Shown here: piece by piece, positions 2,547 to 56,601 of the stretch | How the letters are laid out: every line of letters starts with the position of its first letter | Numbering within the stretch: the first letter of the stretch is position 1 | Assembly: GCA_963714275.1 (NCBI GenBank) | Contig: CAVQNT010000010.1 | Coordinates: 1-57,391, forward strand | Length of the DNA stretch: 57,391 bases | Origin: Candidatus Bathyarchaeota archaeon | Lineage (GTDB): Archaea > Thermoproteota > Bathyarchaeia > Bathyarchaeales > DTEX01 | Direction of reading: 5' to 3' | Made by a program: the position numbers and the translations under genes | The notes under the pieces: model-generated | Seen by the model: the letters and a program-made list of their open reading frames with translations, nothing else | The model's database searches: none | Told to the model about the DNA's origin: nothing

Positions 2547-2581
2547 CCCTCCTTCCCCTATTTTCACAGACTGCTTAAGTA
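2547..2581 (+). promoter_or_regulatory. C-rich/CACAGA-N4-TTAA promoter-like box, copy 1 (no downstream + strand gene)
   Basis: ccctccttcccctattttCACAGActgcTTAAGTA aligns with copies at 12763, 17064 and 19940. Confidence 0.5.
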
Positions 2582-2920
2582 AGTTTCAGAGTTAGGCTCT
2601 GGTCTGTCATGTTGACTGCTAAAAATAGAAAATATCTGCAAGAAGCTAAGATATTTTATTTCTATGAGTTGCATGGCTTCTTGGAAGTAGTTGAGCACGT
2701 TCGTGCCTTTGTCTGTGATCTTGTAGGTTATGTGGCATCCCAACTCTTCTGAAGTAATCAGCTTTTGCTCTATCATTGTGTCGAGAACATGCGTAAGAGG
2801 TTTCCAAGAAAGATTAGTTCGATACATAATTCGTGTTGGCTTGTTGACGCCTTTCTTTATTGCCTGTAAAATGTCGAGGTAAATTTCAATCCGTGAACGT
2901 TTAGTACTCACATTAAACAC
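2564..2920 (-). CDS. Archaeal winged-helix transcriptional regulator
   Basis: KRSRIEIYLDIL...KPTRIMYRTNLSW...YKITDKG pattern; C-terminal tail may be read-through. Confidence 0.85.
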   Translation of the reverse strand: MFNVSTKRSRIEIYLDILQAIKKGVNKPTRIMYRTNLSWKPLTHVLDTMIEQKLITSEELGCHITYKITDKGTNVLNYFQEAMQLIEIKYLSFLQIFSIFSSQHDRPEPNSETYLSSL

Positions 2921-3867: not shown

Positions 3868-4059
3868 ATGCCTTCTCTCTATCTTAAATGCAAGAGCTGT
3901 GGCGTAACGTTCTCATCAAAAATGAGCATGGACACAGAGAAATTCAAAAAGGAAATCATGAAGTATAATACGCATAAATGCCCAAAAGGGCACGTGAACA
4001 CTTATAATAAAGAGGACTATTTCTTTCAACAAGCACTTTCGGAATTACTGACGACATAA
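3868..4059 (+). CDS. Small Zn-ribbon-like protein
   Basis: CKSC...CPKGH; SD-like ggaagggg; last codons lie inside the 126-bp repeat. Confidence 0.7.
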   Translation: MPSLYLKCKSCGVTFSSKMSMDTEKFKKEIMKYNTHKCPKGHVNTYNKEDYFFQQALSELLTT

Positions 4060-4167
4060 AAAAACATATATCACTTAATCCGCATATCTTTGTTGTTCGG
4101 GGAGCCCAACCTGTCTAAATATACCCCCTTCTCATCTCCCCGGCAGCTTGGGCTTCCCGGGCAACTT
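4042..4167 (+). repeat. 126-bp dispersed repeat, copy 1 (promoter + hairpin RNA + start of T tract)
   Basis: Near-identical to 15687..15812; differences only in the hairpin loop. Confidence 0.95.
4092..4165 (+). ncRNA. Putative 74-nt hairpin small RNA, copy 1
   Basis: 24-position terminal stem (19 WC, 4 G-U, 1 C.C), 26-nt C/U-rich loop, aaaaaaacatatat BRE/TATA ~26 nt upstream, T-rich tract downstream. Confidence 0.65.
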
Positions 4168-4306
4168 TTCTTTGCAAGTTTTACAAGTCAACTTTTAAAG
4201 TATTTCTAAAAAACAAAACAGTGACAAAAAGACCATGTAATGAATTTTTTATTCTGATAATGGTGAAACCAGAAGCCCATGCCGGAAGCGACACCCAGCT
4301 GCTGGG

Positions 4307-4822
4307 CTACCTTTTCTTATGGAATCTCTTATACGCAGAAGAGACCAGCAAATATCCATAGAATACTATGCCCAGTATTCCCATCCACACACAAAAACTA
4401 TACACTTCTGAAGTCAAAGATGGATTATAAAGCGGATTTATCGTCAGTGGATAGAATGGTCTTATGTCGCTATACAGCGGAGAATCTAGCAAGACGTGAA
4501 ATAGGGTGCCAAGAACTCCAGGAACCAAGAAAGACCTGAGATTAAGGGTCTGATCCTTCTCTAGTAGGAGTATCTTGTGAAGTGGATACAAAATCTTCTC
4601 AAGAAGAAACATCGCGTAACCTAAAGCAAGGCCAACAAAGAAAGCTGAGAAGAATGTATGCAAATAGCCATGTAAGGGATATCTCAAACCTAGAAAAAGG
4701 ACTAGAAAAGGCTCAACATCAACAATGACATTAGCTACTACGAATGTGGGCGCATGCATATATTTTCTGAGTGGAAGCCCAAAACCTAGAGCTGGACCTA
4801 GATGAAACGGTGTAAACGGCAT
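4307..4822 (-). CDS. Membrane-bound metal-dependent hydrolase-like protein
   Basis: MPFTPFHLGP start; DVEP, HGYLHT and HVLLD motifs. Confidence 0.85.
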   Translation of the reverse strand: MPFTPFHLGPALGFGLPLRKYMHAPTFVVANVIVDVEPFLVLFLGLRYPLHGYLHTFFSAFFVGLALGYAMFLLEKILYPLHKILLLEKDQTLNLRSFLVPGVLGTLFHVLLDSPLYSDIRPFYPLTINPLYNPSLTSEVYSFCVWMGILGIVFYGYLLVSSAYKRFHKKR

Positions 4823-4961
4823 GTTTTCTTCACATATCTGTAACTTTGATTCCTTTTTGCTTATCTGGACAGCTGAGCTAGATATCCATAATTTGACTTT
4901 AGGTTTGTTCTTTGAGACATGTCAAAGCTAGGTCTTGGTACTTTGTTTCCTGCGCATTACT

Positions 4962-6025
4962 TCAAACGTGAGTGTTGCGAAGGCCAGTGTAAGAACTGCG
5001 CCCACAGCGATGCCAACTAGAAGAAAGTAGGCAGCGTATAATTGTGAGCTGAATCGAATCATCTTGGCTAGGGTTCTCTGGCTCTTTCTCAACCATTATT
5101 GAAGATTCAGAAATCACAAAATCCTTTGTTAGCCAGCTCATTGGACCTTCATACTCCATAACGGTTAACCACGCGCCTTTCGGAAACAATTCACCTATTC
5201 TAAGGTCGATGATGCTTCAGCTGGCCTTTTGTTAAATTGAGATTCGATTGGAGCCCACAGGCTAGCACTTCGGAAATACGCTCTCACAATCGGTGTATAT
5301 TGAGATAAGACAAAATTATCCTGAATCTTGCCATTGGTCAGCAGGAAGAGAGTAATCTTAGTGTCTCCAGAGATTGGAGACGAAATCCTTAACGGATAAT
5401 AAAGAAAATTGGTTTCAAACTGGTACAGAATAGGTTCAACGCTCTTCTGGTCAGCTGACAACTGGATAATATCAAGGGCAAAGAACCGGAACCCTAGAGC
5501 CATGTAATCTTCGATCACGGCTTCAAATTTTTTCAGCGAAATCCCGCCAGTAACATTGTTAGATTCCAGGAACTCTCCAGCCCAAGATGTAAGCTCCGAG
5601 GCGTCTCCTGCTTTAACGACTGTAACATCGTGGGCTCCTATCTTCTCGTGGAACGTAACCTCTATGCTCCCAATGCTTTCAGACTGATAGTTATCACCTA
5701 AAACTGCTCGTGCATGTACCCCTAGTAATTCCTGAATTGTGATAAAGGATTCAAAGCTAGCCTTCTCAATCTTCTTAGGGTTTGAGGGAAGAGGCATTAT
5801 CTGAAGAACTAACGTCTCGCTTGCTGCGCTTACATCGGTGGAAAGAATCAATATCTCCTCTTGTCCATTCCAAGCAATGATGGCTTTCTGCCCAGGCTCA
5901 TAAACCGAGATGCTGGGGACCACAGGTACCATTCCCATATCTGCAAGACCAATAGAAATATACGGCAAGAACAATGCGAAAAGCAAAGCAAAAGAAAGAC
6001 TCCGATATAACTGTCTCTTATCCAA
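4962..6025 (-). CDS. DUF2330-like exported protein (frameshifted near 5190-5250)
   Basis: Signal peptide, ADMG...QKAIIAWNGQEEILILS, YYPLRISS; C-terminus continues in 4962..5189. Confidence 0.65.
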
Positions 6026-6227
6026 GACTAACTCCCACCATAACTAATTATTCTATACACATAATAAGTCTACATTTCAGAACAGCTAAGCTAGCTAAGA
6101 TAACTTTAATATTTTGGTCAGAACCTTGAAGTTATTCATTACTTCTAGTCTAGGTGCACTAGCATGTAGCCTTTTTGCTACATATTTAGGTGCTGGTGGT
6201 GGATGGGCTGTATTTGCTAGTTATATG

Positions 6228-6446
6228 TCAGCGCGCGTGCGCTTCACAGAGTCTCTTTATTTTTTCAGATATTAGGAAGCCTGCGAGTATAATTGCTCCA
6301 CCCAATATGTAAACAAGGATTTTTTGATACTGATTTATATCAATAGAATATACTGCCAAAATGCCCACTATCACCCCAGCCATGGCTATGGGTAAGTAAG
6401 CCTCTGTGATATGACGAGTTTTCATTTTTTGCCACCTTCTGCACAT
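6228..6446 (-). CDS. Small two-TM membrane protein
   Basis: Two hydrophobic helices; stop codon lies in a GCGC junction motif. Confidence 0.55.
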   Translation of the reverse strand: MCRRWQKMKTRHITEAYLPIAMAGVIVGILAVYSIDINQYQKILVYILGGAIILAGFLISEKIKRLCEAHAR

Positions 6447-6483
6447 ATTAATATTTAATGGTTAGAGCTAGTTAGCTAATCGG

Positions 6484-6774
6484 TTAAGGATTCTTCAAAG
6501 CTTTGTAAAGAAGATACGAAACCAAAGTGGAAAGAAACGTTTCAAAACCAATAACAATTACAACCCGCTCTAAAACCTCACTCATGCCATAAGGAACCCA
6601 GATAGTTATCGGAATTTCATGTGGCGTCATATCAGGCTCGTTATGTCCCAAAAAGAAACTACGGACATATGGAGAAAGCGCAATATTCCCTAGAAACCAC
6701 AACATCAACAGCACAAATGGCACAACAAAAAACCAACGACCCCTCAACCACATTCCCCTTACCCATAACAACAA
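6484..6774 (-). CDS. Hypothetical membrane protein
   Basis: Two hydrophobic segments; flanked on both sides by AGCTAG motifs. Confidence 0.5.
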   Translation of the reverse strand: MLLWVRGMWLRGRWFFVVPFVLLMLWFLGNIALSPYVRSFFLGHNEPDMTPHEIPITIWVPYGMSEVLERVVIVIGFETFLSTLVSYLLYKALKNP

Positions 6775-7002
6775 AAACTTGGAGACCCTGCCATATAAGC
6801 TAGCTAGCTGTTTGGTTCATACAAAATATTGTCATAATCTTGTGTTCATAAAAACTTAAATCCGTCTTACCTCTCTGTATTATTTGGGGAGTCTATTGCC
6901 TTCAAAAAATGCATAAAAGGAACATGCAAATAAAATCCGCACCCAACTAGTTCAGTAATAACTTTGAGTTTAGAAATAGGTTTTATGGGGCTATGATGCA
7001 GA

Positions 7003-8148
7003 ATGAATAAGACCTTTTTTGTTTCGTATGCAGTTTGGGGGCTGTTTTTAGGGCTTTTCTTGATAACGGTCTCAATGTTTGGAAAGGCGAATCCAAGTGT
7101 GGTTACAATGACTGCCACAATCAAGGGGACGTGGGATTTCGATGTGGATACTGGGCAAAATACTGCATCGATGGCGGATTTATTTTGGGACCAGGTTACT
7201 GAGACTGAAAGACATATAGTGCCTCGAAACGGAGCAAAGTATGCAAACCTTGGCATTGTTGATTTTGATTCAGTCGTTAATTTCTCTTCTTATTCTATGT
7301 CTGAAGACATAATTGACGGCAGCGTTGACCACAACGCAATACCTGATGGTACAGTCCTCGCAATCAAGACCGATATTGGAAACTATGCAAAAATGAGGAT
7401 TGACAATTATGGCAATAACCTAACTGTAACAATAGTAGTATACCGGAACCCCGCCACCACAACTCCCATTCTTCACGTTATTTATTACCAAATTTTATGG
7501 CTTATACCATTTACCTTGATTACATTTGTGCTTTTTGAGAGAAGACCTCGTACATTTGAAGAAAAATTTTTGCGTCCACTTGATGGTGAACGCTTCATCA
7601 TGGATGTTTCACCTACGCCCAGTTTCAAGAGTTATGTAATGGCTAATGTCATGCTACATGGGCTTCCTCTTTTGGCTATGTTCAATGTAATGATTGCTAT
7701 GGTCGTCTATTTGGCGACTGGTGGTGCCCCAATCAGCGAAGTAGGCATGGTTCCTCTACTCCAAACCTACGCCATTTTATATCTTATTTTCGCTGCCACC
7801 GTCATCGGATTAACGTTTATTCTTGCCAACTTAATGTACAATAAATATCATTACTGGATCACAGACCGGCGAGTGATCTGGAAGCACGGAATAATAGGCT
7901 ACAGCATAACAAGCGTTCCCCTCGAGAAAATCTCGGATGTTGCTCTAAGCAGGACGTTTTTAGAAACAACATGTGGCGTAGGCGGGCTAATTGTGAAGGA
8001 AACGATGGGAGAAGTAAAATATGGTTGGTACGGACCAAGCGGACGCGTTTTCCCAACCATGATCGCTGTACCGAACCCTGAAGAAATGCAAAGGCAAATC
8101 CTCGAATTAATAAGCAAAAAAGGAAAAGAGAATAAACTCACCGTTTAA
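7003..8148 (+). CDS. Membrane protein with extracellular beta domain and C-terminal bacterial PH (bPH_2-like) domain
   Basis: YWITDRRVIWKHGIIG...VPLEKISDV pattern; several TM helices. Confidence 0.7.
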   Translation: MNKTFFVSYAVWGLFLGLFLITVSMFGKANPSVVTMTATIKGTWDFDVDTGQNTASMADLFWDQVTETERHIVPRNGAKYANLGIVDFDSVVNFSSYSMSEDIIDGSVDHNAIPDGTVLAIKTDIGNYAKMRIDNYGNNLTVTIVVYRNPATTTPILHVIYYQILWLIPFTLITFVLFERRPRTFEEKFLRPLDGERFIMDVSPTPSFKSYVMANVMLHGLPLLAMFNVMIAMVVYLATGGAPISEVGMVPLLQTYAILYLIFAATVIGLTFILANLMYNKYHYWITDRRVIWKHGIIGYSITSVPLEKISDVALSRTFLETTCGVGGLIVKETMGEVKYGWYGPSGRVFPTMIAVPNPEEMQRQILELISKKGKENKLTV

Positions 8149-8262
8149 GCCAGTCAGCTATCTCTTGTATCAAGTCTAGAAGCCGGAAAAGGCATACACA
8201 ACATAGTCTCGAGGCGCCTCTGATCGTGGGTTCTGCTGCTTGGTTCAAGGTTGATACAAGAG

Positions 8263-8922
8263 TCAAGAAGGACCAAAAAAAGTAGATGCACCTGATTTAA
8301 AGTATTTCGAAAAAGAGTGAACATAGGTTTTTCTTCTTTTAGCAATCCAAAGAAGAGACAGAGGTGTGCCAAAGGCAATTAGAGCTGCGCTTGGAACTGT
8401 TGAATAGTCCTTTGAAATTAGAGCAGAAATTAGGCTGATCCTGTAAGATACCGCGCCCGTTGTATTATGAGGGTTGGAAATGAGTACTGTGGCGTTAGTG
8501 AGCTTCCAAGGAAAGTAGTCTACTGATTGATATCCAGGTATTGTTGCATTAAGTAAAATGGTTTCCATATGCGATTGTAGGAATTGATTTATGACTTCTG
8601 GACTAGTCATTTTATTCCAAATCTCGAATCTGCTTAAGTCAGGAAATTGACTGCTAACCCAGTCTTCAATCTCAAGCCTGCTGATTCCAAGAATGAGAGC
8701 TTGTAAAGGACCACTTGCTTGGATATATATCCTTACTCCTATGTGAGGTGACAAAACAAGCGTACTGGAAACTTCATACTGTGGGAAGAAAGAAGACCCT
8801 GACCCCGACTGGGTTTCTCCTAGTGTCATATATGGAATTGAGGAGATAAGAAGAACAGCCAGTCCTACTAACAGAGCAATTAAGCCCGTTCTTCCGAATA
8901 AATAAAGTAACCGCGGATTCAC
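8263..8922 (-). CDS. Hypothetical membrane-anchored protein (ABC operon)
   Basis: N- and C-terminal TM helices; overlaps permease stop. Confidence 0.7.
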   Translation of the reverse strand: MNPRLLYLFGRTGLIALLVGLAVLLISSIPYMTLGETQSGSGSSFFPQYEVSSTLVLSPHIGVRIYIQASGPLQALILGISRLEIEDWVSSQFPDLSRFEIWNKMTSPEVINQFLQSHMETILLNATIPGYQSVDYFPWKLTNATVLISNPHNTTGAVSYRISLISALISKDYSTVPSAALIAFGTPLSLLWIAKRRKTYVHSFSKYFKSGASTFFGPS

Positions 8923-9748
8923 ACTTCAAGTCTCCGTTCAAAGTAGTAGAATACAAAAATGAAAATAACTGCTACCAATATGTAGCCTGCTCCCAGGTAC
9001 AATGATGCTTCGGAAAAGCTTGGAGACCATATGGCGCCTCCTGTAAAACCTGAAAGCCCTTCCTGTGACGCTTGCATGTAATGTTGCGGGCTTGAACGAT
9101 AATATTGACTCAGGGCAATAACCGGGTTGATTACTGCAAAAAACTTTATGATCAAATTTGAATTCATGGCAGAGGAGAGATACAATGCAAGGGTAACAAG
9201 CATCTCAGACATGAACTGCATAAATATGCCAATGATTAATGCCCAGCCTCCTCGCTTTACAAAAAATGTTAACAATAAAACGATTCCTACAACAAACAAG
9301 GGATAACACAAGGCTGCCATACATGTCAAAGTCACTGTACTCATATGCAGTAAAACAGTGTAGGGCGCCACGATGGATAATACAAAGATTTGGATTCCCA
9401 AGAAAAGAAGAAGTGCGACTCCGACGGATGATAGGAGCTCACTAAAAGGAGGCTTTTCCTACTCAAGGGATACATAAGGTAAGTTTGCATGGTACCTTTT
9501 TCCAGATCGTTTCCTAAGCCAAAAGCGATGTTTTTAACGATCAAAACTAAAATGAAGAAAAGGGGAAGCCCGGATAATACCTCAACCAAATTGAAGGCTA
9601 AGCATTCTTCAGATTTAATGAACTGTGTACCCATACCCGATAGGTTCGCGTTTACAAAGAAAATTGTCGCAATAGTATAGAAAAAGGCGAAAATTTCTAG
9701 AACTGGAAATCTGTAGTCTTCCTTCAACGAGAGGGCTAGAACTTCCAT
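8919..9748 (-). CDS. ABC-2 type permease (frameshifted ~9440)
   Basis: DLEKGTMQTYLMYPLSR motif; halves in 9341..9817 and 8919..9401. Confidence 0.75.
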
Positions 9749-9770
9749 AAAACCTTGACCTTTACGCAAT

Positions 9771-10697
9771 TCATCTCTCCTTCCTAGGTGATATGGCACG
9801 GTTGTAGAGTTCCTCAAGAGAAGCGGTGCTGCTATCTATTCCGGAGATTTCAACCTTGATTTCCTTGGAAATTCTAATAATGTCTTCGTAGAGCTGCTGA
9901 CGCTTTCCTTCGGGCACATCCAATGATATGCCTTTCAAATCCACTTTAGCCAGCTTGACATAGCTTAGTGTACTAATGGCTTTAGCGAGTTTTTCGGGCT
10001 CATTTGTTGACACTCTAGTGGCTCCAATGCTGAGTTTTTCGCACAGTCTAGAACCCCTCCTTGAGCCCAAACCTTGCCTTCGTTTATTATGGCAATTGAT
10101 TCGCAAACCCTACTTAACTCAGGCAAGATATGGGAAGAAATGAAAAAAGTTGTTCCCGTTTCATGGTGTAACTTCAAGAATAAATCTAAAATCTCGGTTC
10201 TTGCTTGAGGATCCAAATTAGATGTTGGCTCATCAGCGATTATTAACTTTGGCTCATGAATTAATGCGTGTGCTATAGCAAACTTTTGCAGCATGCCTGC
10301 TGAAAGCCCCTTAATCGCCCTGTCATATGCTTCTTCTTGAAGCCCGACAGTTTCCAACATTTCTTTTGCCCTAGACACGGGTACACCATATATTCTGCAT
10401 GTTTTCTCAAGAAAATCCTGAACCTCATTATGAATTGGGAAGTTCTGTTTTTCAAAAACAACGCCTATTCTTGATCTAATGTCAGGATTGTCCCATGGAT
10501 TTTGACCAAAAACCTCAACCTTACCTCTATCAGGCTTTAGAAGACCCAGAATAACCTTGATAGTGGTTGTTTTTCCTGCTCCGTTTGGTCCAATCAAGCC
10601 TAACATGTTTCCATATGTGACCGTCAAAGAAAGTCCATTAATGGCTACGACTTTGCCATAACTCTTCAGCTAGATTTTCAATTAGAATAGCCGTCAA
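9771..10697 (-). CDS. ABC transporter ATP-binding protein (frameshifted ~10665 and ~10055)
   Basis: GPNGAGKTT, LSAGM, IIADEP, SSH; C-terminal SLEELY. Confidence 0.9.
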
Positions 10698-10848
10698 TAC
10701 TAAATCTCCCACTACTATAAATAGCAACGCAAGCTACCAAGATATATAATTTTTGGAAAGATCATAAAAGTCAAGTCTGCCTATTTTTTTTCTCCTCTAT
10801 AGTTTTTCTTTGTTTCTTTCATCCATGGAATGTGATTTGGATTGTTAG

Positions 10849-11376
10849 TTAACTTGTATCTTTTCTTATCCAGTCTGCGAGTACGATCTTTTTGGAATTT
10901 CCGTATTGCCTTCTTTCAATCACGTTTCTGCCTTCGAGCTCCTGCAAAGTTCGTGAAATTTTGGCTTTAGAGTAACCTGTTTCCAAACACAGGTCTTTCT
11001 GCAATATTTCACCTCCCTTCTCGACGATGACGTCAAAAACCTTCCGCCTAGAACCTGACAAAACCTTCAATGTTGTGTCTACTTTGACAAGACTCCTCAA
11101 GTCACTATTAGGTTCTGACGAAAAAGCTTGTTCAGAAACATGTTTTTCAAGCCTAACAACAGGCTCCCTTGCTTCCTTGTAAAGATATGAAGCGGACACT
11201 CCAGCTGCGATAGAACATATTATGATGACTGCTACCTCGGTTGCTTGATAAAGTATCGGAGTGTAAATTGTGGTGACGATTTCTCCTTCTACGACAATGT
11301 TTATGGGCTGCGACCTTGCCAACGTATTTGCTAAAATAAAGCATGAAATGGCCAGAATGACTGCGGAAGCTGCCAT
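10849..11376 (-). CDS. Membrane-anchored protein with C-terminal wHTH domain
   Basis: Two TMs then GGEILQKDL...SKAKISRTLQELEGRNVIERR. Confidence 0.8.
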   Translation of the reverse strand: MAASAVILAISCFILANTLARSQPINIVVEGEIVTTIYTPILYQATEVAVIIICSIAAGVSASYLYKEAREPVVRLEKHVSEQAFSSEPNSDLRSLVKVDTTLKVLSGSRRKVFDVIVEKGGEILQKDLCLETGYSKAKISRTLQELEGRNVIERRQYGNSKKIVLADWIRKDTS

Positions 11377-11458
11377 AGATTTATTTATTTTCGTAACCGT
11401 AGGCTCCCAGCCCCATATGATTATCCACCGTAAGATTAAAAAATTTTACTTTAAGAAG

Positions 11459-12667
11459 TTACTCGCCGACATCAGCAACCACGGATATCTTAGCCGCCTG
11501 AATCCCTGCAAATTCGATGAGCTCTTCATTAGTCACATAAACGCCTTGTTTTATTGCTTCAAAACGATACGTTCCACAAATCATGACCACCAGATTGTGT
11601 TCCCTGAAAACAACAAAGGATCCACTTGCAAGACCGGTCCAATCGTCCCAACCACTCCATGACAGGTCGCGTCTTTCAAATTGGTCAACGAGGAACCCCG
11701 AATCCCCTATTTCCTGCATTGTGACTCTACAGTGTCCATATTTTTCCGTTAGCAGCATACCTTCCATCCTACTTTCAAGGTACTGAGCCGCAACCTCATC
11801 ATTCACAAACTGGATGATCTCAATTGTGATATCCTTAGCAAAGCCGTTATCTGGTTTAGTGAAGGATCTACTGCTCATGCCAAACCCTTCAATCGTTGTT
11901 TCGTTAAGCCTCCCCTCCCCAGCAACAACCCAACCTTCCGGCAAATCCTCTGAGCCTATTATCACGAGCCTTGGATGAATCGATATTGGATAAGGAACTG
12001 CAGGAGGAGGACCAACAGTAAAGTTCACAATGGTCTCAGATGAGTCAACAAGTCCACTAAGCAATTCTTTCACACTAGCTTTTAGCGTGTAGATTCCAGG
12101 AACCCAGTCATAGGATACAAGTATGCAATATCCTCTGTATGAAAAAACGCTTGAAACATTAGTTGAACTACTTAATCCCTCTACACCACTAAAACCCCGT
12201 AAATCACTTGTATTAGCCACTAAAATTCCCTGAGAATCATACAGTGCTAAAGACATTTTAAAATAGGCAAACAAAACTTCATCATAAAATACATACTCAC
12301 TATCTTTTTCGCCTAGATTGCTTGATTCCCAGATTCCAGCGCCCTGCGGGGTTGAATAGAAATAAGTATAATTTAGCATGATTCCCATAATGTCTCCTTG
12401 CCTGAATTCTTCCTGTGGGATGGTGCTGATTGGAAATTGGGTTGGAAATTGTTGGGTAATATCAAATTTTATTGTACCCAACGACGTTATCTTTAAAGAC
12501 TCTACAGGAAATAGTGACCTGGCAGTAGCTTCCGGATTTAACTCTATAACCACAGGTGTGTGTGGAAAAATCCGTTGATTTGTTTCAGCAGCAGCTAATC
12601 CTAAGACTGCTGACCCAATAACTAACATCATGGTCATAACAATAACTTTACGATTCATGTCCTTCAC
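11459..12667 (-). CDS. Hypothetical secreted protein
   Basis: 402-aa ORF with signal peptide. Confidence 0.75.
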   Translation of the reverse strand: MKDMNRKVIVMTMMLVIGSAVLGLAAAETNQRIFPHTPVVIELNPEATARSLFPVESLKITSLGTIKFDITQQFPTQFPISTIPQEEFRQGDIMGIMLNYTYFYSTPQGAGIWESSNLGEKDSEYVFYDEVLFAYFKMSLALYDSQGILVANTSDLRGFSGVEGLSSSTNVSSVFSYRGYCILVSYDWVPGIYTLKASVKELLSGLVDSSETIVNFTVGPPPAVPYPISIHPRLVIIGSEDLPEGWVVAGEGRLNETTIEGFGMSSRSFTKPDNGFAKDITIEIIQFVNDEVAAQYLESRMEGMLLTEKYGHCRVTMQEIGDSGFLVDQFERRDLSWSGWDDWTGLASGSFVVFREHNLVVMICGTYRFEAIKQGVYVTNEELIEFAGIQAAKISVVADVGE

Positions 12668-12762
12668 AAGTCCAAGCTTTGATGAAACAGTATAAACAAT
12701 TTAGGTGAAAAATCGACCCTTCTCGTTTCATTTTTTGAAAACAAGACTTATTATTATTACAA

Positions 12763-12800
12763 CCCCCTCTCTCCCCTTGTTTGCACGGATTCTTTAAAAG
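12763..12800 (+). promoter_or_regulatory. C-rich/CACGGA-N4-TTAA promoter-like box, copy 2
   Basis: ccccctctctccccttgtttgCACGGAttctTTAAAAG upstream of 12843. Confidence 0.6.
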
Positions 12801-12842
12801 GGTTTTGAGTCAGCTCTAATGCCCCTATAGGGTGGTTGTGTT

Positions 12843-13163
12843 TTGGGTAAGACTGTTCCTTCCTTTCGTATGAAGCTTGAAAGCGAGATTGCTAAATGGA
12901 AAGAATTCATGAAGGCTCTTCCAGGCAACTCAGACAAAGAAGCTTTTGAAGAGTTAATGAATTATTGTCGCAGTTACGCGTCAGCTGCGGGAGCTGCTGT
13001 AAGGCCGATCGTGTCAGATGCTATGTTCATGTCCATTCTTCTAGCTCAAGAAAAAGAACTGAGAGAGATCATGGCTTTACTTGAAAAACTTAACAACGAG
13101 AAGGAGAAGCAGCAGGATGAAAATTCACAGCTGGGTCTCAAGAAAGAAGTACCTGCACAATAA
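12843..13163 (+). CDS. Small helical protein of the family encoded next to archaeal PolB2 (arCOG07300-like)
   Basis: MGKTVPSFR...W..F.KAL...DKEAFEELM...A.G....P.....MSILL..EK pattern; family recalled from memory. Confidence 0.75.
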   Translation: MGKTVPSFRMKLESEIAKWKEFMKALPGNSDKEAFEELMNYCRSYASAAGAAVRPIVSDAMFMSILLAQEKELREIMALLEKLNNEKEKQQDENSQLGLKKEVPAQ

Positions 13164-13365
13164 GGCCGCATACGAATATGAAAGGTTCTGCGTACCTGTA
13201 CCTAAACGGTTACAAAGCATCGTGAAACCCTTCGCCAACAGAGAAGTCAATATCAAAATAGAACCACACAAAGACGGCTTCACAATGCAAGTCCACCTTT
13301 CCTCCCGCCCCAAAACTTCTAAAGACAAGAAAAATAGCGAAGAAAAGCCTTCACGAACCCCGTAA
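13117..13365 (+). CDS. Small basic protein, possibly AbrB/SpoVT-like (paralog of 17947..18159)
   Basis: YEYERFCVPVPKRLQSIVKPF vs YQYEQIVMPIPRKFHDLVKPY; ATG at 13117. Confidence 0.65.
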   Translation: MKIHSWVSRKKYLHNKAAYEYERFCVPVPKRLQSIVKPFANREVNIKIEPHKDGFTMQVHLSSRPKTSKDKKNSEEKPSRTP

Positions 13366-13569
13366 AAACGTTTATGCGCACCGAAAAACACCCCGTCAAA
13401 ATCCCCACTTCTATACATACCTAAGCCATGAATTTAACAGGAAAATGTACATCAATCCTAAATACGGTTCCCAACTGCGATTTTGCTATAGGCATTTCTG
13501 TACACAGAAACGTTTTCGCCTATAGAACTCCTTGTTGCATAAAAATGTGTAAAAAGCTGAAAAACCCCA
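13358..13569. promoter_or_regulatory. Conserved intergenic control region, module A
   Basis: ccccgtaaaaacgttt (16 nt) and tgtgtaaaaagctgaaaaacccca (24 nt) are identical in module B; inverted aaaacgttt...gaaa / tttctgtacacagaaacgtttt pair. Confidence 0.7.
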
Positions 13570-13638
13570 AGCCCAAAAATTCGTCATTCATGCAGCCTTG
13601 ATGGCTAAAGCTTGTCTGTTTAAGGGCTTGTTAAGGAC

Positions 13639-14025
13639 ATGACAAGAAATGGGAAACCAGGACTTTCGGTCTTTAAGGGTAGAGAAGCAAGACTGAACAG
13701 AATGATCCTTCTCTTTCTTTGCAAAGAATGTTGTTTGAACATTTGGCAAGTCTATAAGAGAGTAAGAGAAACCCGAGGTTTTCGGCATCTAAGATACCAT
13801 GTTATTAATAGACGCATAAGAGACTTGGAACAAGAAGGATTCATCGAAGTAACGACTGTAAGAGAGATGCCTCAAGGACAAAAAGTGAAATTCTTCCAGC
13901 CTACCACAAAAACCTACCTCGCCTTCCTCCTAGATATCATTAATTTTGACCAACTCATACAGTCAGCAAACAACACAGACATCATCACATTACTAGCAGC
14001 CTTATCAGCCGCAACTATGACTTAG
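13639..14025 (+). CDS. Winged-helix DNA-binding protein (paralog of 18432..18809)
   Basis: LSVFKGREARLN...YHVINRRIRDLEQEGFIE. Confidence 0.8.
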   Translation: MTRNGKPGLSVFKGREARLNRMILLFLCKECCLNIWQVYKRVRETRGFRHLRYHVINRRIRDLEQEGFIEVTTVREMPQGQKVKFFQPTTKTYLAFLLDIINFDQLIQSANNTDIITLLAALSAATMT

Positions 14026-14104
14026 AATCCTTATTTTCTTAAGAAGGACATCTTCCATAACTTCTAATTACTCCTATACTCATAGAATTATTGTGGGGAT
14101 ATTG

Positions 14105-14251
14105 ATGGGCGATAGATCCCAATGGAGCGAGTTGATCGAGGCATCAGAGGAACTGCTCAATGCATACGCTCAATTGAGGGCAAAAGCAGCCAATGTATCT
14201 GATGCAAGAGAGTCAAGCATGGAAACCGAAAATAGCCGACTTCTTAACTAG
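14105..14251 (+). CDS. Possible small helical protein (48 aa)
   Basis: MGDRSQWSELIEASEELLNAYAQLRAKAANV..., gggga upstream. Confidence 0.3.
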   Translation: MGDRSQWSELIEASEELLNAYAQLRAKAANVSDARESSMETENSRLLN

Positions 14252-14275
14252 CCTTTTTCATGTCTTAATACTTAG

Positions 14276-14599
14276 CTATTTTCGCTCTAGCTTGAAGATC
14301 ACTGGTCTTAATCCGTCTGGGCAACACGCTACTGCAACTCCAGTTTCATCAAAATACTCAGGATACCAGGGATTGCCACCAAACCTGAGCGTCATAATTA
14401 TCGCGAACATTGCCTCCCAAGCCCAGGTGCAAAACTCGTTTGGCCTACAACAGTATTCATCAACCTGGAATACCTGTCCTTCTTTGAAGACGGGACATGG
14501 ACCACTATACTTTGCCTTGATTGGAGGATCTTTGAATACTTCTTTGGTGTCAAAACGCTTGAGCACTGTAATCTCTAAGTAACTTTCCTTCCTCTTCAA
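14276..14599 (-). CDS. TIGR04076-family protein
   Basis: GPCPVFKEGQVF...FCTWAW...CCPDGLRPVIFKLER. Confidence 0.85.
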   Translation of the reverse strand: MKRKESYLEITVLKRFDTKEVFKDPPIKAKYSGPCPVFKEGQVFQVDEYCCRPNEFCTWAWEAMFAIIMTLRFGGNPWYPEYFDETGVAVACCPDGLRPVIFKLERK

Positions 14600-14658
14600 A
14601 TAAACGCCTCACACATTGTCTAGCCCGCGCACTTTTATGGCTTATGGAAGGACCTTCG

Positions 14659-14700
14659 TTTGGGTTTGGTGTTAAATTTTAATCCAAACCCAAACCCAAA
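14659..14700. repeat. Inverted repeat tttgggtttgg-N14-ccaaacccaaa containing a recurrent motif
   Basis: Perfect 11-bp arms; right half recurs at 16274 and 18805. Confidence 0.7.
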
Positions 14701-14881
14701 CAGGCTATCTAACAGAGCCTAATAGCATAGCTAGTAGAGGGTGTAGGGGGTACACCTACACCTAGACCTACACCTACAAACAAAACAAATAAAAAAAACA
14801 CACACAAAAACACACAAAAACAAAAACTTTATACGAACAGAAAAAGAGGGGAAGCTGAAATCAGAATACGATTTGTGGTGG

Positions 14882-15292
14882 TTATTTTTCCTTCTTCGGC
14901 GTGGGTATTTCTTTAAGACCGAGTTGCCGCATCAAGTCCAAAGCACTATATTCACCATGGTCTTCCACGATCTTGCCACCAGCAAAGCGGTCGATGAAGA
15001 TCAACGAAATCGTCACCTTCTTATTGGTAGGAGGGATGCCCATAAATTCACCTTTGTGTGTGCCAGTCCACGTCGTGCGCGCTGCTACCTTGTCTCCTTC
15101 GGCGACCATGTCATCAATGGTTACATGCATGTCGGGAAACGCGTCGTACATCTCGCTCTCCATTTGTTTGAAGTCCTTGAGGTCGCCGCGCATATCGATC
15201 GATCGATCGATTGCTGCCATGGCGGCTGCCTTCCCCTTGTTAAACTCCTCAAGGAAACGATGCACAAGCTCCTTATTTTCTTTTGCTGACAT
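14882..15292 (-). CDS. SnoaL-like ester/polyketide cyclase (internally deleted paralog of 16552..16990)
   Basis: AFPDMHVTIDDMVAEGDKVAARTTWTGTHKGEFMGIPPTNK. Confidence 0.85.
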   Translation of the reverse strand: MSAKENKELVHRFLEEFNKGKAAAMAAIDRSIDMRGDLKDFKQMESEMYDAFPDMHVTIDDMVAEGDKVAARTTWTGTHKGEFMGIPPTNKKVTISLIFIDRFAGGKIVEDHGEYSALDLMRQLGLKEIPTPKKEK

Positions 15293-15391
15293 GACAAATC
15301 ACCCGCTAAGAATAAGTGAGTGCGCGTGAATATTTAAGCTTAAATAATTCATTGAGCAGAAGAAAAAAAGAAAAGAAATTCTCGATAGAAG

Positions 15392-15686
15392 TTAGAAATC
15401 AAAATTAGGCGTTCTGGGAATCCATGTTTCTCTTTCGCTACGTAAATACTTAGCAAATAATAATGCTTCTTCGTTAATTAGGGGTTCAAGGGTTTGTCTT
15501 TGACCGTGTTTTATTCTGGGGACATCAACCTTAGACTCGAAATAGCTGTTAAGCTTCCTCATCAAATCTGATGTTTTAGGATCGTTCAAGTATTCACGTT
15601 TAGCCATCTTGCTTCTGGAAAGTCTTTCAGTCTTAACTGTGAAGTCTTTAACCCTGAGACCTTGACAATATTGGATTAAAAAATCA
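15392..15686 (-). pseudogene. cas1: 3' remnant of a stand-alone Cas1-like gene
   Basis: DFLIQYCQ...KDFTVKTE...REYLND...PRIKHGQRQTLEPLINEEALLFAKYLR...WIPR resembles, from memory, the C-terminus of Bathyarchaeia solo Cas1; truncated at the 126-bp repeat. Confidence 0.6.
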
Positions 15687-15812
15687 GAATTACTGACGAC
15701 ATAAAAAAACATATATCACTTAATCCGCATATCTTTGTTGTTCGGGGAGCCCAACCTGTCTAAATATTTCCCTTCTCATCTCCCCGGGCAGCTTGGGCTT
15801 CCCGGGCAACTT
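15687..15812 (+). repeat. 126-bp dispersed repeat, copy 2
   Basis: Near-identical to 4042..4167. Confidence 0.95.
15737..15810 (+). ncRNA. Putative 74-nt hairpin small RNA, copy 2
   Basis: Stem identical to copy 1, loop variant, same promoter, T-rich tail. Confidence 0.65.
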
Positions 15813-15952
15813 CTTTTCATCATTCATCCTGCTTTAGATATCTGAAGCCTAAAATTTTTAATAGCTCGCCAGCCATGGGACAAAAAATGTTGCCTCTTTT
15901 TTGTGCGCAATTCTAAGATAAACCTTTAAACGAGGAGAACAACTGTAAATTT

Positions 15953-16198
15953 GTGGGAGTTGATTCTGTGCCTGTCGCTTTTGTCCTTATAAACACAGAG
16001 ATTGACGCTATGGAAAAAGTCTTGAAAGCCTTAGAGAACGTCGAAAACGTAAAAGAAGCTTATAGCACATTTGGAGTATACGACGTAATTGTTAAGGTTG
16101 AAGCACCGTCTATGGACAAGATCAAAGATTTAGTAACTTACCGAATAAGAAGGCTGGATGGCGTTAGATCAAGCTTAACGATGATAGTTATTGAGTAA
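15953..16198 (+). CDS. Stand-alone Lrp/AsnC ligand-binding domain protein
   Basis: AFVLINTE...FGVYDVIVKVEA...IRRLDGVRSSLTMIV. Confidence 0.9.
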   Translation: MGVDSVPVAFVLINTEIDAMEKVLKALENVENVKEAYSTFGVYDVIVKVEAPSMDKIKDLVTYRIRRLDGVRSSLTMIVIE

Positions 16199-21176: not shown

Positions 21177-21241
21177 TACTTTGAAGGGGTCTCCAAAGTA
21201 TAGTATACTTTGAAGAGGCTCCCAAAGTATAGTATACTTTG
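21177..21241. repeat. 29-bp tandem repeat forming two perfect 19-bp palindromes (caaagtata-g-tatactttg)
   Basis: Palindromes at 21194-21212 and 21223-21241 in the divergent intergenic region upstream of the integrase operon. Confidence 0.9.
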
Positions 21242-21570: not shown

Positions 21571-22831
21571 ATGGGCAGGGGAGTGGCTGGCTTCCACGAT
21601 GCTTCGTTCAGAAACGCGTATTTCACCAACAAGCGGGTTAACCAAGAAGGGAAGTACGGCGAGTATGGCGTCGTCCTACACCAGCCCCCCACATGCCCAG
21701 AATGTGGTCAACAAAAGTTTGGAAAGACGGATTCCGAAGTGACAGTCTTATTCCTATTCAGAGGCGGCTTTGCCGTGACTGCGGCTACCGGTTTTCTGAC
21801 CATGTTCAAACTAATAAAAAGGAGAACCAGCATAGTAGTGAGTGCCTAGTACGCGTTTCGGACAACGAGATGATAAACTTGGCCACAGTGGAACCCCGAA
21901 TTCAAGAAAAGGCTGCGGGAGCCACAGTCAATGATGCAAAAAGTCTAATCTTTGAGTATGCGTGGATGCTTAAGAAACAAGGCTATCGAGAAGGAACAAT
22001 CAGGGAATACGCGAATCAAATAGCGCTCTTAAAAAAATATGGCGCTGACATATTCAACCCAGAATCAGTAAAATCTGTTCTAGCACAAGCAAGCTGGAAA
22101 GAATCAACCAAGGCTGTAATTACAAAAATCTATTCCAATTTTCTTTCATTCCACAACTTGACTTGGCATGAACCAACATATAAACAAAGAAAAACGCTTA
22201 AATTCATACCGACAGAAAAGGAAATCAACGATCTAATTAGCTGTTGCGGAAAAATCACAAGCTTAGCCTTAAGAATAGCGAAAGAAACTGGAGCTCGAAT
22301 CGGTGAAATAGCAAAGTTAAGATGGATCGATATAGACCGAGAAAAAAGAATCCTGAGAATCAGCGAAGCTGAGAAAGGCAGCAATCCAAGAATATTGAGC
22401 ATATCTAACGACCTTATAGCACTCTCGACCACATGCAAAAGAAAGGCGAATACGTCTTCATGACAAATGGCAAACCTATGGTCGCAACACACTTGAGCGG
22501 ACTTCTTCTAAACGGCAGAAAAACAGCAGCCAGAAAACTCATAAATCCAAGACTACTAGAAATCTCGTTTCACACTATGAGGCATTGGAAAGCCACAATG
22601 GAATACCACAAAACCAGAGACATACTGCACGTGAAAGAAGTGCTGGGACATAAATGCATTGAAAACACCATGATTTACATTGACATGGAGAAAGCGTTAT
22701 TCCGTGAAGGAAACGAAGACTTCATAGTTAAAGCCGCTGCAAATTTGGATGAAGCATGCAAACTCCTTGAGGTGGGATTTGAATATGTCTGTGAAATGGA
22801 CGGAAAGAAGCTGTTTAGAAAGAGAAACTAA
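21571..22831 (+). CDS. Tyrosine recombinase/integrase with N-terminal Zn ribbon (frameshifts ~21708 and ~22430)
   Basis: TGARIGE, EKG, HTMRH, LGH, TMIY catalytic set; N-terminal CPECG..KVWKDG...QRRLCRDCGYRF. Confidence 0.9.
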
Positions 22832-26703: not shown

Positions 26704-27667
<964 letters not shown>

Positions 27668-47586: not shown

Positions 47587-47640
47587 ACAATAACCTGTGC
47601 AATTATTAATAAACTTTTAAAAGATTCTTTTTAATGATAG

Positions 47641-47715
47641 CGGGCCCGGCGGGAATTGAACCCACGACCACCGGATTAAAAGTCCGGTGCTCTATCCTGA
47701 CTGAGCTACGGGCCC
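47641..47715 (-). tRNA. tRNA-Lys(UUU)
   Basis: GGGCCCGTAGCTCAG...CCGGA-CTTTTAA-TCCGG...GGTTCAATTCC...CGGGCCCG cloverleaf. Confidence 0.97.
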
Positions 47716-50593: not shown

Positions 50594-50720
50594 GCCGGGA
50601 GTAGACCCGTTGCCAAGCCCATCAATAGGCTCAATAAGGGGTGGCAGAGCGGTAATGCGCTGGACTCGAGATCCAGTGACTCTTCGAGTCGCAAGGGTTC
50701 GAATCCCTTCCCCGGCGCCA
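50594..50720 (+). tRNA. tRNA-Ser(CGA) with a 41-nt insertion in the acceptor stem
   Basis: GCC at 50594 + GGGGTGGCAGAGCGG from 50638; CTGGA-CTCGAGA-TCCAG; long variable arm; ends CCCCGGCGCCA. Confidence 0.85.
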
Positions 50721-55300: not shown

Positions 55301-56601
55301 ATGTTGAATATTATGGAATTGAAACGGACTCTGAACCTGTTTGACGCTACATCCATCGGAATTGGAGCCATAATAGGCGCTGGAATTTTTGTGGTATTAG
55401 GCATAGCCACTGGTTATGCTGGTCCATCCGTCATCGTTTCGATGATAATTGCTGGCATTGTAGCCTCTTTCACTGCTTTTAGTTTTGCGGAGTTAGGTTC
55501 AGCGATTCCAAGGGAAGGCGGTGCCTATGCATTCGCATATGAACTGATTTCTCCTGTTGTCGCTTTCGTAGTAGGTTGTTTGTGGTTGTTTGCACAGGTA
55601 GTGGCTGGAGCAGCGATAAGCCTGGGATTTGCAGGTTACTTTGTGACCATGTTCCCCATCCTTCCAGTTAGAATCATAGCTGTCCTAGCGGCATTAACAT
55701 TGACTGGCCTAAATGTTGTCGGAATCAAGCAGTCTGCAATGTCAACGATATACTGGTTTTGATAAAGATTGCGATTCTATACTTTTTTGTAGGGTTTGGA
55801 TTATTCCACATTGATTTACAGAATTTTTCTTCGTTTAGTCCTAATGGCGTATTTGGAATTTTGGAAGGAGCAGGTTTCATCTTTTTGGCTTATATAGGTT
55901 TTGGGAGAATAGCAACTTTAGGCGAGGAAGTTAAGAATCCACAGCAGACCTTATCTCTATCGATTCTGCTGGCATTAACATTATCTGTTATAATCTATAT
56001 TCTAACAGGATTCACCGCAACTGGGCTTCTGGATTATAGAGTCCTGGCACAGTCAGGATCACCGATTGCTGATGCTGCAAAAGTCATTGGCAACAATGCA
56101 TTAGTAGCAGCTGTTTCTTTAGGTGCTCTCATAGCCACCGTCAGCGTTCTCTTGACTAACCTTATTGGTCTGTCTAGAGTTTCATTTGCGATGGCTAGGG
56201 ATGGTCAGCTTCCGAAAACTGCAGCAAAAATGTCGTCAAGATTTGGTACGCCATATATTTCCATCCTCATCAAGGGTGCAATTACAGCCTTTTTGCCGCT
56301 TGTTTTGGATTTGAAGCAGGCAGTGGCAATGACAAGTTTCGGAATTTTATTCACGCATGTGGTCGTAAACTTTTCCGCGATAAGGCTTAGAAAGAAGATG
56401 TCGCATTCAACTACATTTAGAGCTCCTCTTTACCCATTAATTCCTTTTTTAGGTATACTTCACTGTATTATTCTGATGTTCTCCTTACCTGAAGAATCAT
56501 GGATTGTTGCAGCTATGATAATTGTTGCTAGTGCTGGTTTCTATTATCTAAGATCAAAGCGGAGACTTAAGAAGGCGACTTTAGCATTAAAGAATCGTTG
56601 A
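55301..56601 (+). CDS. APC-family amino acid permease (frameshift ~55745)
   Basis: GAIIGAGIF, FAELGSAIPREGG, EEVKNP, AMARDG. Confidence 0.9.

Follow-up and report, generated by a model that had tools for sequence, protein, structure and literature searches.

A Hairpin Gene Present Twice in an Archaeal Contig

A 57,391-nucleotide stretch of DNA from a Candidatus Bathyarchaeota archaeon (hereafter, the window) carries on its + strand two nearly identical elements, at 4042-4167 (copy a) and 15687-15812 (copy b), and we asked what these elements encode, how they came to be present twice and what their product may do. The original prediction, made from the sequence of the window, described a self-contained, structured small RNA (sRNA) gene in more than one copy, with its own predicted promoter and T tract. 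This description has held up: the stem covaries among relatives, a TATA-like box lies at a fixed distance upstream, and the reverse strand scores weakly. We regard it as highly probable that the elements belong to a real, previously uncatalogued sRNA gene family. The window copies are recent paralogs of a gene that is specific to one family of Bathyarchaeia; the way in which its RNA acts can be proposed more tentatively, and we favor pairing of the loop with ribosome-binding sites (RBSs).

The two copies share one anatomy and are 96-97% identical, whether counted from promoter to T tract or as full repeat units (4039-4167 and 15684-15812). An A-run and TATA-like element, AAAAAAACATATAT, occupies 4058-4071 in copy a (15703-15716 in copy b), its ATATAT beginning 32 nt before the first strong stem pair (C4098). 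It is followed by a 24-nt 5′ arm (4092-4115; 15737-15760), a 26-nt loop (4116-4141; 15761-15786) and a 24-nt 3′ arm (4142-4165; 15787-15810). In copy a, the loop consists of a variable A/U-rich spacer and a conserved pyrimidine run, CCCCCUUCUCAUCUCCCC (4124-4141), and the T-rich tract TTTTCTTTG (4166-4174) beyond the 3′ arm is the likely termination signal. Recounting the pairing of the two arms of copy a by hand gave 19 Watson-Crick pairs, 4 G-U pairs and one C.C mismatch, exactly the numbers first reported. As + strand RNA, copies a and b fold with −35.3 and −36.4 kcal/mol (z −5.9 and −5.4; 0 of 200 shuffles equally good), whereas the − strand folds gave z values of −0.7 and −2.0; the hairpin is stable on the + strand only. 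The loop is unpaired in both the minimum free energy and the centroid folds of the window copies.

The flanks of copies a and b are unrelated to each other, so a misassembly, which had been named as a possible source of the duplicate, is unlikely. Only two places set the copies apart: the 5′ portion of the loop (AC to TT, with one C missing) and the border of loop and stem, where there is one extra G. Both length differences fall within homopolymer runs and, given this position and several split genes in the assembly, the two indels could be sequencing errors. The split genes of the window, namely a phosphofructokinase in 3 open reading frames (ORFs; 26704-27667), an amino-acid permease in 2 (55301-56601) and an integrase in 2 (21693-22831), are either pseudogenes or the result of assembly indel errors, and this bears on how the homopolymer differences between the sRNA copies are to be read.

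Stem Covariation, Strand and Promoter

Comparison with relatives showed that the stem changes in a compensatory manner. In a set of 35 distinct sequences, pairing holds in 96.2% of cells, and 10 of the 19 pairs show two-sided changes. Enlarging the set to 73 distinct sequences from metagenomes and genomes gave 96.7% paired cells, with compensatory, two-sided changes in 11 of the 19 pairs. In this larger set, the covariation score was reached by none of 500 shuffles, and sliding the partner by 1-3 columns lowered pairing to 22-55%. The stem covariation among homologs that the original prediction expected of a genuine RNA is thus present. Typical exchanges are CCGGG/CCCGG to CCAAG/CUUGG and CUGUC/GGCAG to CCGCC/GGCGCG; the C.C mismatch is found throughout the family, five to six pairs below the loop. 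Conservation is higher in the 3′ arm than in the 5′ arm, which frequently answers with G-U pairs, and many of the stem G-U pairs would read C.A on the opposite strand. Scored with a covariance model, the reverse strand reaches about 25 bits, against 93-103 bits for the window copies (103.1 bits for 4085-4175 in copy a and 92.6 bits for copy b). Because the 5′ arm answers with G-U pairs and the reverse-strand scores are much weaker, the functional strand is the + strand.

Upstream of the hairpin, and counted from the first strong stem pair, TATA-like hexamers cluster at −33 to −31 (74 motif hits, 71 distinct upstream flanks), and the AT content of the family flanks is at least 0.92 at −37 to −35 and at −31 to −28. 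Paralog subfamilies with otherwise unrelated upstream sequence hold the TATA-like box at the same distance, which argues that each of these subfamilies has been kept as an expressed gene. Downstream, 55 of 71 distinct family members have a T run of at least 3 within 20 nt. From these sequence signals we infer transcription itself and the ends of the RNA; the predicted product would be an RNA of about 80-90 nt, with a short 5′ leader, a 23-bp stem containing the conserved C.C, a 21-31-nt loop and a U tail.

Copies and Phylogenetic Distribution

The window is contig C10 of a 2.64-Mb genome in 10 contigs, and this genome holds six full copies of the sRNA gene: copy a (C10:4085-4175), copy b (C10:15730-15820), C2:653400-653490 on the minus strand, the diverged paralog C2:256043-256134 (locus L005:1486-1577), C6:365781-365870 and C2:374249-374334. 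Copy a is preceded by a 63-aa ORF without family match (3868-4059, + strand), the last 21 nt of which lie inside the repeat unit, and the same ORF stands upstream of a truncated copy on another contig (C5:84896-84964; locus L004). What remains of this truncated copy is the ORF, the promoter and the beginning of the 5′ arm, after which the sequence continues with a homolog of window position 4914; the loop, the 3′ arm and the neighboring membrane-protein gene have been deleted.

A first covariance model, built from the six copies of this genome, found the sRNA in 28 of 36 Bathyarchaeia genomes of the same family, with one copy in each (a second match per genome in the model's table is the reverse strand of the same site), and in none of 24 genomes from eleven other families of the order. 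With a second covariance model, the sRNA was detected in 5 of 6 sampled family members and, under stricter filters, in none of 144 other genomes of the class. Further afield, the loop 18-mer matched 45 stretches of a species-representative genome collection, of which 20 are titled as metagenome-assembled genomes (MAGs) of Bathyarchaeota or Bathyarchaeia; the covariance model confirmed all 20 and did not confirm one match in a Thermoplasmata MAG. The 24 bacterial matches stand outside this model check, and about 17 chance matches are estimated for an 18-mer in the collection. Viral contigs gave no match to a 22-nt pattern. Within the genomes searched, the sRNA gene family is specific to one family of Bathyarchaeia.

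The Founding Locus Beside nob1

The minus-strand copy at C2:653 kb corresponds to the single copy of the relatives and lies tail-to-tail with a gene for a 178-aa protein composed of a PIN domain and a zinc ribbon. This protein matches Pfam PIN_6 (1.5e-16), and its best solved relative is PDB 2LCQ (1.2e-22), followed by human and yeast NOB1, which identifies it by sequence as the predicted archaeal Nob1. Nob1 is the endonuclease that makes the 3′ end of 16S rRNA. The gene order is aIF5A, NAD kinase, Nob1, the sRNA on the opposite strand, and Pelota. Among the relatives, nob1 is convergent to the sRNA in 27 of 28 loci, the exception being an sRNA at a contig end, and Pelota adjoins the sRNA in 19 of the 28; in metagenomes, nob1 stands beside the sRNA in 35 of 56 contigs with the motif. 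The founding copy is thus a vertically inherited, single-copy locus of the housekeeping type. No comparable hairpin was seen after nob1 in 22 genomes of other families, which were inspected by eye. In one other family (loci L107, L113 and L121), a tRNA-Ser(CGA) gene is convergent to nob1 at the place of the sRNA, with an intron in 2 of the 3 loci; the tRNA-Ser(CGA) gene of the present genome lies in the window at 50635-50716.

Comparison with Known RNA Classes

Rfam 15, applied to the whole window at the gathering score, matched two transfer RNAs (tRNAs) only, both outside the sRNA gene. In the region 3950-4300 at E ≤ 10, the best match on the hairpin was mir-28, with 16.5 bits against a gathering score of 64 (E 2.2). 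A tRNA was rejected as the identity of the hairpin, as ARAGORN and RF00005 find tRNAs solely at 47640-47715 and 50635-50716. An H/ACA sRNA was rejected as well, since the stem is unbroken but for the one C.C and the 3′ tail CUUUU is without ACA; the sole H/ACA row at E ≤ 10 (snoR99) lies on the opposite strand and outside the hairpin. Likewise, a C/D box sRNA was rejected, given that neither a C box (RUGAUGA) nor a D box (CUGA) is present in 4085-4175 and that no C/D family appears at E ≤ 10. These checks agree with the first reading of the locus, in which no tRNA, C/D or H/ACA pattern had been recognized.

A Near-Invariant Loop Resembling the 16S rRNA Tail

The original prediction had also described the loop as exposed and variable, and here it has to be corrected: the variable portion is the 5′ part, a spacer rich in A/U that differs in length and sequence, and this is followed by the near-invariant pyrimidine run. 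The 3′ 14-18 nt of the loop are the best conserved bases of the whole family. The run is identical in most orthologs, across genera whose neighboring proteins are only 50-60% identical, and its variants (UCUCGUCUCC, UCUUGUCUCC and UUUAUCUCCCC) are all transitions.

The 16S rRNA of this genome ends in GAUCACCUCCU. Within the loop, UCAUCUCC resembles the anti-Shine-Dalgarno (anti-SD) sequence UCACCUCC of this tail, with 7 of 8 bases alike, and is able to pair with GGAGGUGA through one G-U; the loop is complementary to GGAG[G/A]UGA. SD-type pentamers (GGAGG, AGGAG, GGTGA) are about 4-fold enriched before the start codons of this genome, as called by a crude longest-ORF script that places gene starts approximately. 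The loop of the paralog at C2:256 kb contains AUCACCUCCU, which is identical to the final 10 nt of the 16S rRNA of this genome. It has eight substitutions, three of which are exactly the three required for the match to the 16S tail, and we roughly estimate the chance odds for such an exact tail at about 1 in 100, with five paralogs allowed for.

A Possible Role in Pairing with Ribosome-Binding Sites

Since the loop resembles the mRNA-binding tail of the ribosome, we favor an anti-RBS role in trans. The exposed, near-invariant run would be the working part of the RNA and would pair with purine-rich SD-like or start-region sequences (GGAG[G/A]UGA and similar), thereby masking them from the ribosome. 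This mechanism and its targets, which we infer from the loop sequence and by analogy with the sRNAs discussed below, are a tentative proposal that we hold at somewhat less than even confidence; the claim that joins the gene's identity with this mechanism also falls a little short of an even chance. As to its origin, the founding gene is a single copy tail-to-tail with nob1, and we read the five further copies of this genome as having spread to islands by recombination at or around the gene.

For Methanosarcina mazei, a review describes sRNA154 (loop 2) and sRNA41 as intergenic archaeal sRNAs with anti-RBS sequences that are proposed to mask the RBS (PMC5867862). The present sRNA is like them in being intergenic, in having its own (predicted) promoter and in a loop predicted to be single-stranded and complementary to the RBS. 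It is unlike them in consisting of a single long hairpin, in its confinement to one family of Bathyarchaeia, in its linkage to nob1 and in its multiple island copies; a relation at the sequence level is not known, and the Rfam scans show none. Among bacteria, sRNAs of the RsaE/RoxS type bind SD sequences through C/U-rich loops. In both cases, exposed C-rich loop motifs could pair with G-rich SD regions, although the present RNA, with its one 23-bp stem and 26-nt loop, belongs to another domain of life and has no homology to RsaE/RoxS.

A number of observations weigh against this proposal. By a rough estimate, a 7/8-base likeness to the anti-SD sequence would occur in a pyrimidine-rich loop by chance with a probability of 10-30%. 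The near-invariance of 18 nt together with the 3′ arm exceeds what generic SD binding needs, and a protein-binding site would also fit it. Long complements of the loop (up to 4 mismatches, whole genome) were only the antisense strands of the copies themselves, and 11-mers of the loop, with G-U tolerated, gave 142 hits in the genome without pattern. Sites of AUGAGAAGG were ruled out as gene starts, the ORFs being short or internal. A genome-wide RNAduplex scan, which covered C6-C10 in part, gave many equally good G-rich sites. When the loop was compared with translation starts, binding shifted by −0.70 kcal/mol over coding controls, a value that does not discriminate, given −0.39 to −0.44 kcal/mol for shuffled pyrimidine probes. 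No positionally conserved pairing site was found in the neighboring nadK, nob1 and pelota mRNAs. Finally, the alignments behind the pair counts were fitted to the covariance model, with relatives that are not independent, and the metagenome set was gathered with a 22-nt pattern that itself fixes part of the loop and 3′ arm.

One further candidate, a −28 kcal/mol loop site in this genome's pelota, was rejected, as it is not kept within the same genus. On C2, palindromes of G/C runs (CCCCCTCCCCTCGCGGGAGGGG..GGGGAGGGGG) recur within about 20 kb (C2:24885-46400; for example, C2:33434 and C2:36186); they are strong duplex partners of the loop, probably unspecific ones.

Bathyarchaeia are abundant and largely uncultured, and none of the papers listed by a full-text literature search describes a regulatory RNA from this group. 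The present sRNA is a well-supported new RNA family of clear anatomy, with a conserved single-stranded motif like the mRNA-binding tail of the ribosome, and it offers a testable entry to post-transcriptional or ribosome-biogenesis control in Bathyarchaeia. It may also be a case of a small RNA gene other than a tRNA serving as a recombination hot spot. If it is merely another trans-acting sRNA, it will be a useful yet ordinary addition to the catalogues of RNA families.

Extra Copies in Mosaic Islands

Mosaic accessory islands house all five extra copies, the two of the window among them. One such island makes up the first 22.8 kb of the window and encodes GNAT acetyltransferases, winged helix-turn-helix (wHTH) regulators, an ABC ATPase and many proteins of unknown function; the remaining part of the window carries core metabolism. 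A XerA-like tyrosine integrase (21571-22831, + strand), split in two frames (21693-22463 and 22433-22831), lies at the inner edge of the island. Paralogous blocks of the island recur as a mosaic in at least 6 further regions of the genome, and some of them stop at the repeat borders (e.g., 15685/6). Elsewhere in the genome, the C2:256 copy stands among GmrSD, Mrr and AbiV genes, the C6:365 copy close to an intact 406-aa integrase and the R subunit of a type I restriction system, and the C2:374 copy directly after a PIN-domain gene. Mobility, as originally proposed, is partly supported: the extra copies sit in mosaic islands carrying integrases, whereas the founding copy is inherited vertically beside nob1.

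In metagenomes, 21 of the 56 contigs with the motif have no nob1 beside it, and 13 of these have at least 700 nt of downstream flank. The paralogs without nob1 form subfamilies with their own promoters. In three of the 21 (L196, L216 and L168), a divergent 320-aa tyrosine integrase starts 50-320 nt away from the paralog, and in a fourth (L167) the distance is about 800 nt; a tblastn search at E 1e-8 found no integrase of the L196 type in the present genome.

The segment between the window copies (4168-15686, 11.5 kb) encodes YdjM-like, DUF2330 and bPH_2 proteins, an ABC ATPase, a MarR/DUF7343 regulator and proteins of unknown function, and contains no integrase. Metagenome contig L204 carries a single copy of the sRNA gene, which is flanked on the left as copy a is and, over about 25 nt, on the right as copy b is; the block 15872-16005 follows further on, and the segment between the window copies is absent. 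A single copy between the outer flanks indicates that the 11.5 kb are an indel bounded by the repeats, which we read as recombination at the repeated gene, either site-specific or homologous.

Alternative Explanations

The extreme conservation of the loop and 3′ arm, which would suit a protein site, together with the nob1 linkage keeps alive a role in ribosome biogenesis, in which the loop would mimic the 16S 3′ tail and bind, titrate or be cut by Nob1 or the KH protein Dim2/Pno1 rather than pair with mRNAs. Archaeal Dim2 binds the 16S 3′ end and Nob1 cuts there, and the tail-to-tail arrangement with nob1 (27/28 loci and 35/56 contigs), the translation-related neighborhood of aIF5A, Nob1 and Pelota, the likeness of UCAUCUCC to UCACCUCC and the paralog with the exact 10-nt tail would all be in keeping with it. 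The geometry differs, however: the 16S tail lies 3′ of helix 45, whereas the motif here lies 5′ of the 3′ arm, in the hairpin loop of a separate, predicted 80-nt RNA, and any mimicry is putative. Gene linkage alone is weak, and the island paralogs are without a nearby nob1; we consider this role unlikely. Slightly less probable again is a lineage-specific anti-SD mimic, in which an abundant hairpin coupled to nob1 would display a 16S-tail-like sequence and compete with or replace the tail, acting either on mRNAs, as a global SD sponge, or on the maturation factors Nob1 and Dim2. Integrative elements would have captured and multiplied the gene, one captured copy would have evolved the exact 16S tail, and the benefit to the element might be to tilt host translation or to gain a landing site. 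The linkage to nob1 would also agree with a guide for pre-16S folding, similar to a biogenesis snoRNA, in which the loop (CCUUCUCAUCU) would pair with 16S nt ~160-170 (AGGUGAGAAGG), the 5′ strand of a 16S hairpin. In this genome the complement is 11 bp long with one G-U; in genome G020 the 16S site (AGGCGAGAGGG) and the loop (CCCUCUCGUCU) both differ at two paired positions, and G024 is compatible too. In G007, G022, G008 and G013, however, changes in the 16S site are uncompensated in the loop and internal mismatches remain, and a loop G goes with a 16S C in just 2 of 5 genomes, which share a genus. As the site is also base-paired within the 16S rRNA itself, and a chance 11-mer match to rRNA is estimated at ~0.04-0.1 from the 142 hits per genome, we find this guide role very hard to credit.

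tRNA genes serve as integration targets of archaeal integrative elements, and the sRNA gene might similarly act at the DNA level, as an attachment or recombination site with the window pair as attL/attR-like junctions of the inserted 11.5-kb segment, a role that would be compatible with an RNA function of the founding copy. Like the tRNA targets, it is a small, highly conserved RNA gene with a strong predicted promoter, its copies bound a segment, and some of them adjoin tyrosine integrases, namely the three of 21 metagenome paralogs at 50-320 nt and the fourth at about 800 nt. Direct 129-bp repeats flank 4168-15686, L204 resembles the empty site, paralogous blocks end exactly at the repeat borders, and the sequence after copy a also follows the integrase-adjacent copy in L168. 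Unlike the tRNA targets, the gene is not a tRNA, both junction copies are complete with identical promoters instead of one whole and one partial, and no integrase lies inside the segment next to a junction; the nearest (21571-22831) is outside, 5.8 kb past copy b, and split. Besides the missing L196-type integrase, further points count against such a role: an integrase of the genome's own type adjoins a tRNA-like 3′ end (C2:557.7 kb), which suggests that it targets tRNAs, none of the 27 + 35 nob1-linked loci seen is occupied, and homologous recombination between the 129-bp repeats explains the indel equally well. We therefore think a DNA-level role improbable. The roles raised by the original prediction, an antitoxin RNA in a toxin-antitoxin pair or a guide RNA whose loop is programmable, would suit the setting of the extra copies in islands rich in defense and toxin-antitoxin genes (GmrSD, Mrr, AbiV, the type I R subunit and the PIN gene just upstream of C2:374), and the SD region GGAAGGGG of the small ORF before copy a can pair with the loop (CCCCUUCU). 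Yet the loop is conserved, the founding locus has no small-ORF partner, and the 63-aa ORF, which is hydrophilic, accompanies only copy a and the C5 copy and is absent from the other full copies. The family has no toxin-like partner ORF, nuclease or effector gene that travels with it, and the genome holds no unique complementary target; we regard both roles as extremely improbable. The least credible explanation, to which we give next to no weight, is that there is no gene at all and that the hairpin is a chance or terminator structure or an assembly artifact. The founding hairpin does lie between convergent genes, where it could end nob1 transcripts, and the assembly does contain indel-type split genes; against this stand the covariation, the invariant loop, the fixed promoter distance, the different flanks of each copy and the conservation across genomes with neighboring proteins only 50-60% identical.

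Neighboring Features

Directly after copy a, a stretch of about 110 nt (4168-4277, + strand) is conserved and is also found after the C2:256 copy and in contigs L168, L182, L214 and L177. It starts with GCAAGTTTTACAAGTCAACTTTTAAAGTATTTCT and may be a second promoter or RNA; Rfam gave no match in this stretch. Several island copies of the sRNA gene have a divergently oriented gene for a small wHTH (HTH_45) regulator 0.2-2.4 kb upstream (window 2564-2920; L098:5562-5831; L100:3113-3382; L101:5372-5641; L204:1799-2068), which may be a module that travels together with them. Just upstream of the integrase region, at 21177-21234, there are two 29-nt units in tandem, each an imperfect palindrome (TACTTTGAAG...CCAAAGTA), which could be a protein-binding or recombination site. 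Lastly, a block of 160-330 nt, which includes a small ORF region and occurs in the window at 10-186 and 12933-13109, recurs at 80-97% identity in at least 5 other places (C2:257 kb, C2:301 kb, C6:365 kb, C4:2.7 kb and C7:156 kb), often near sRNA paralogs, and is part of the mosaic island repertoire.

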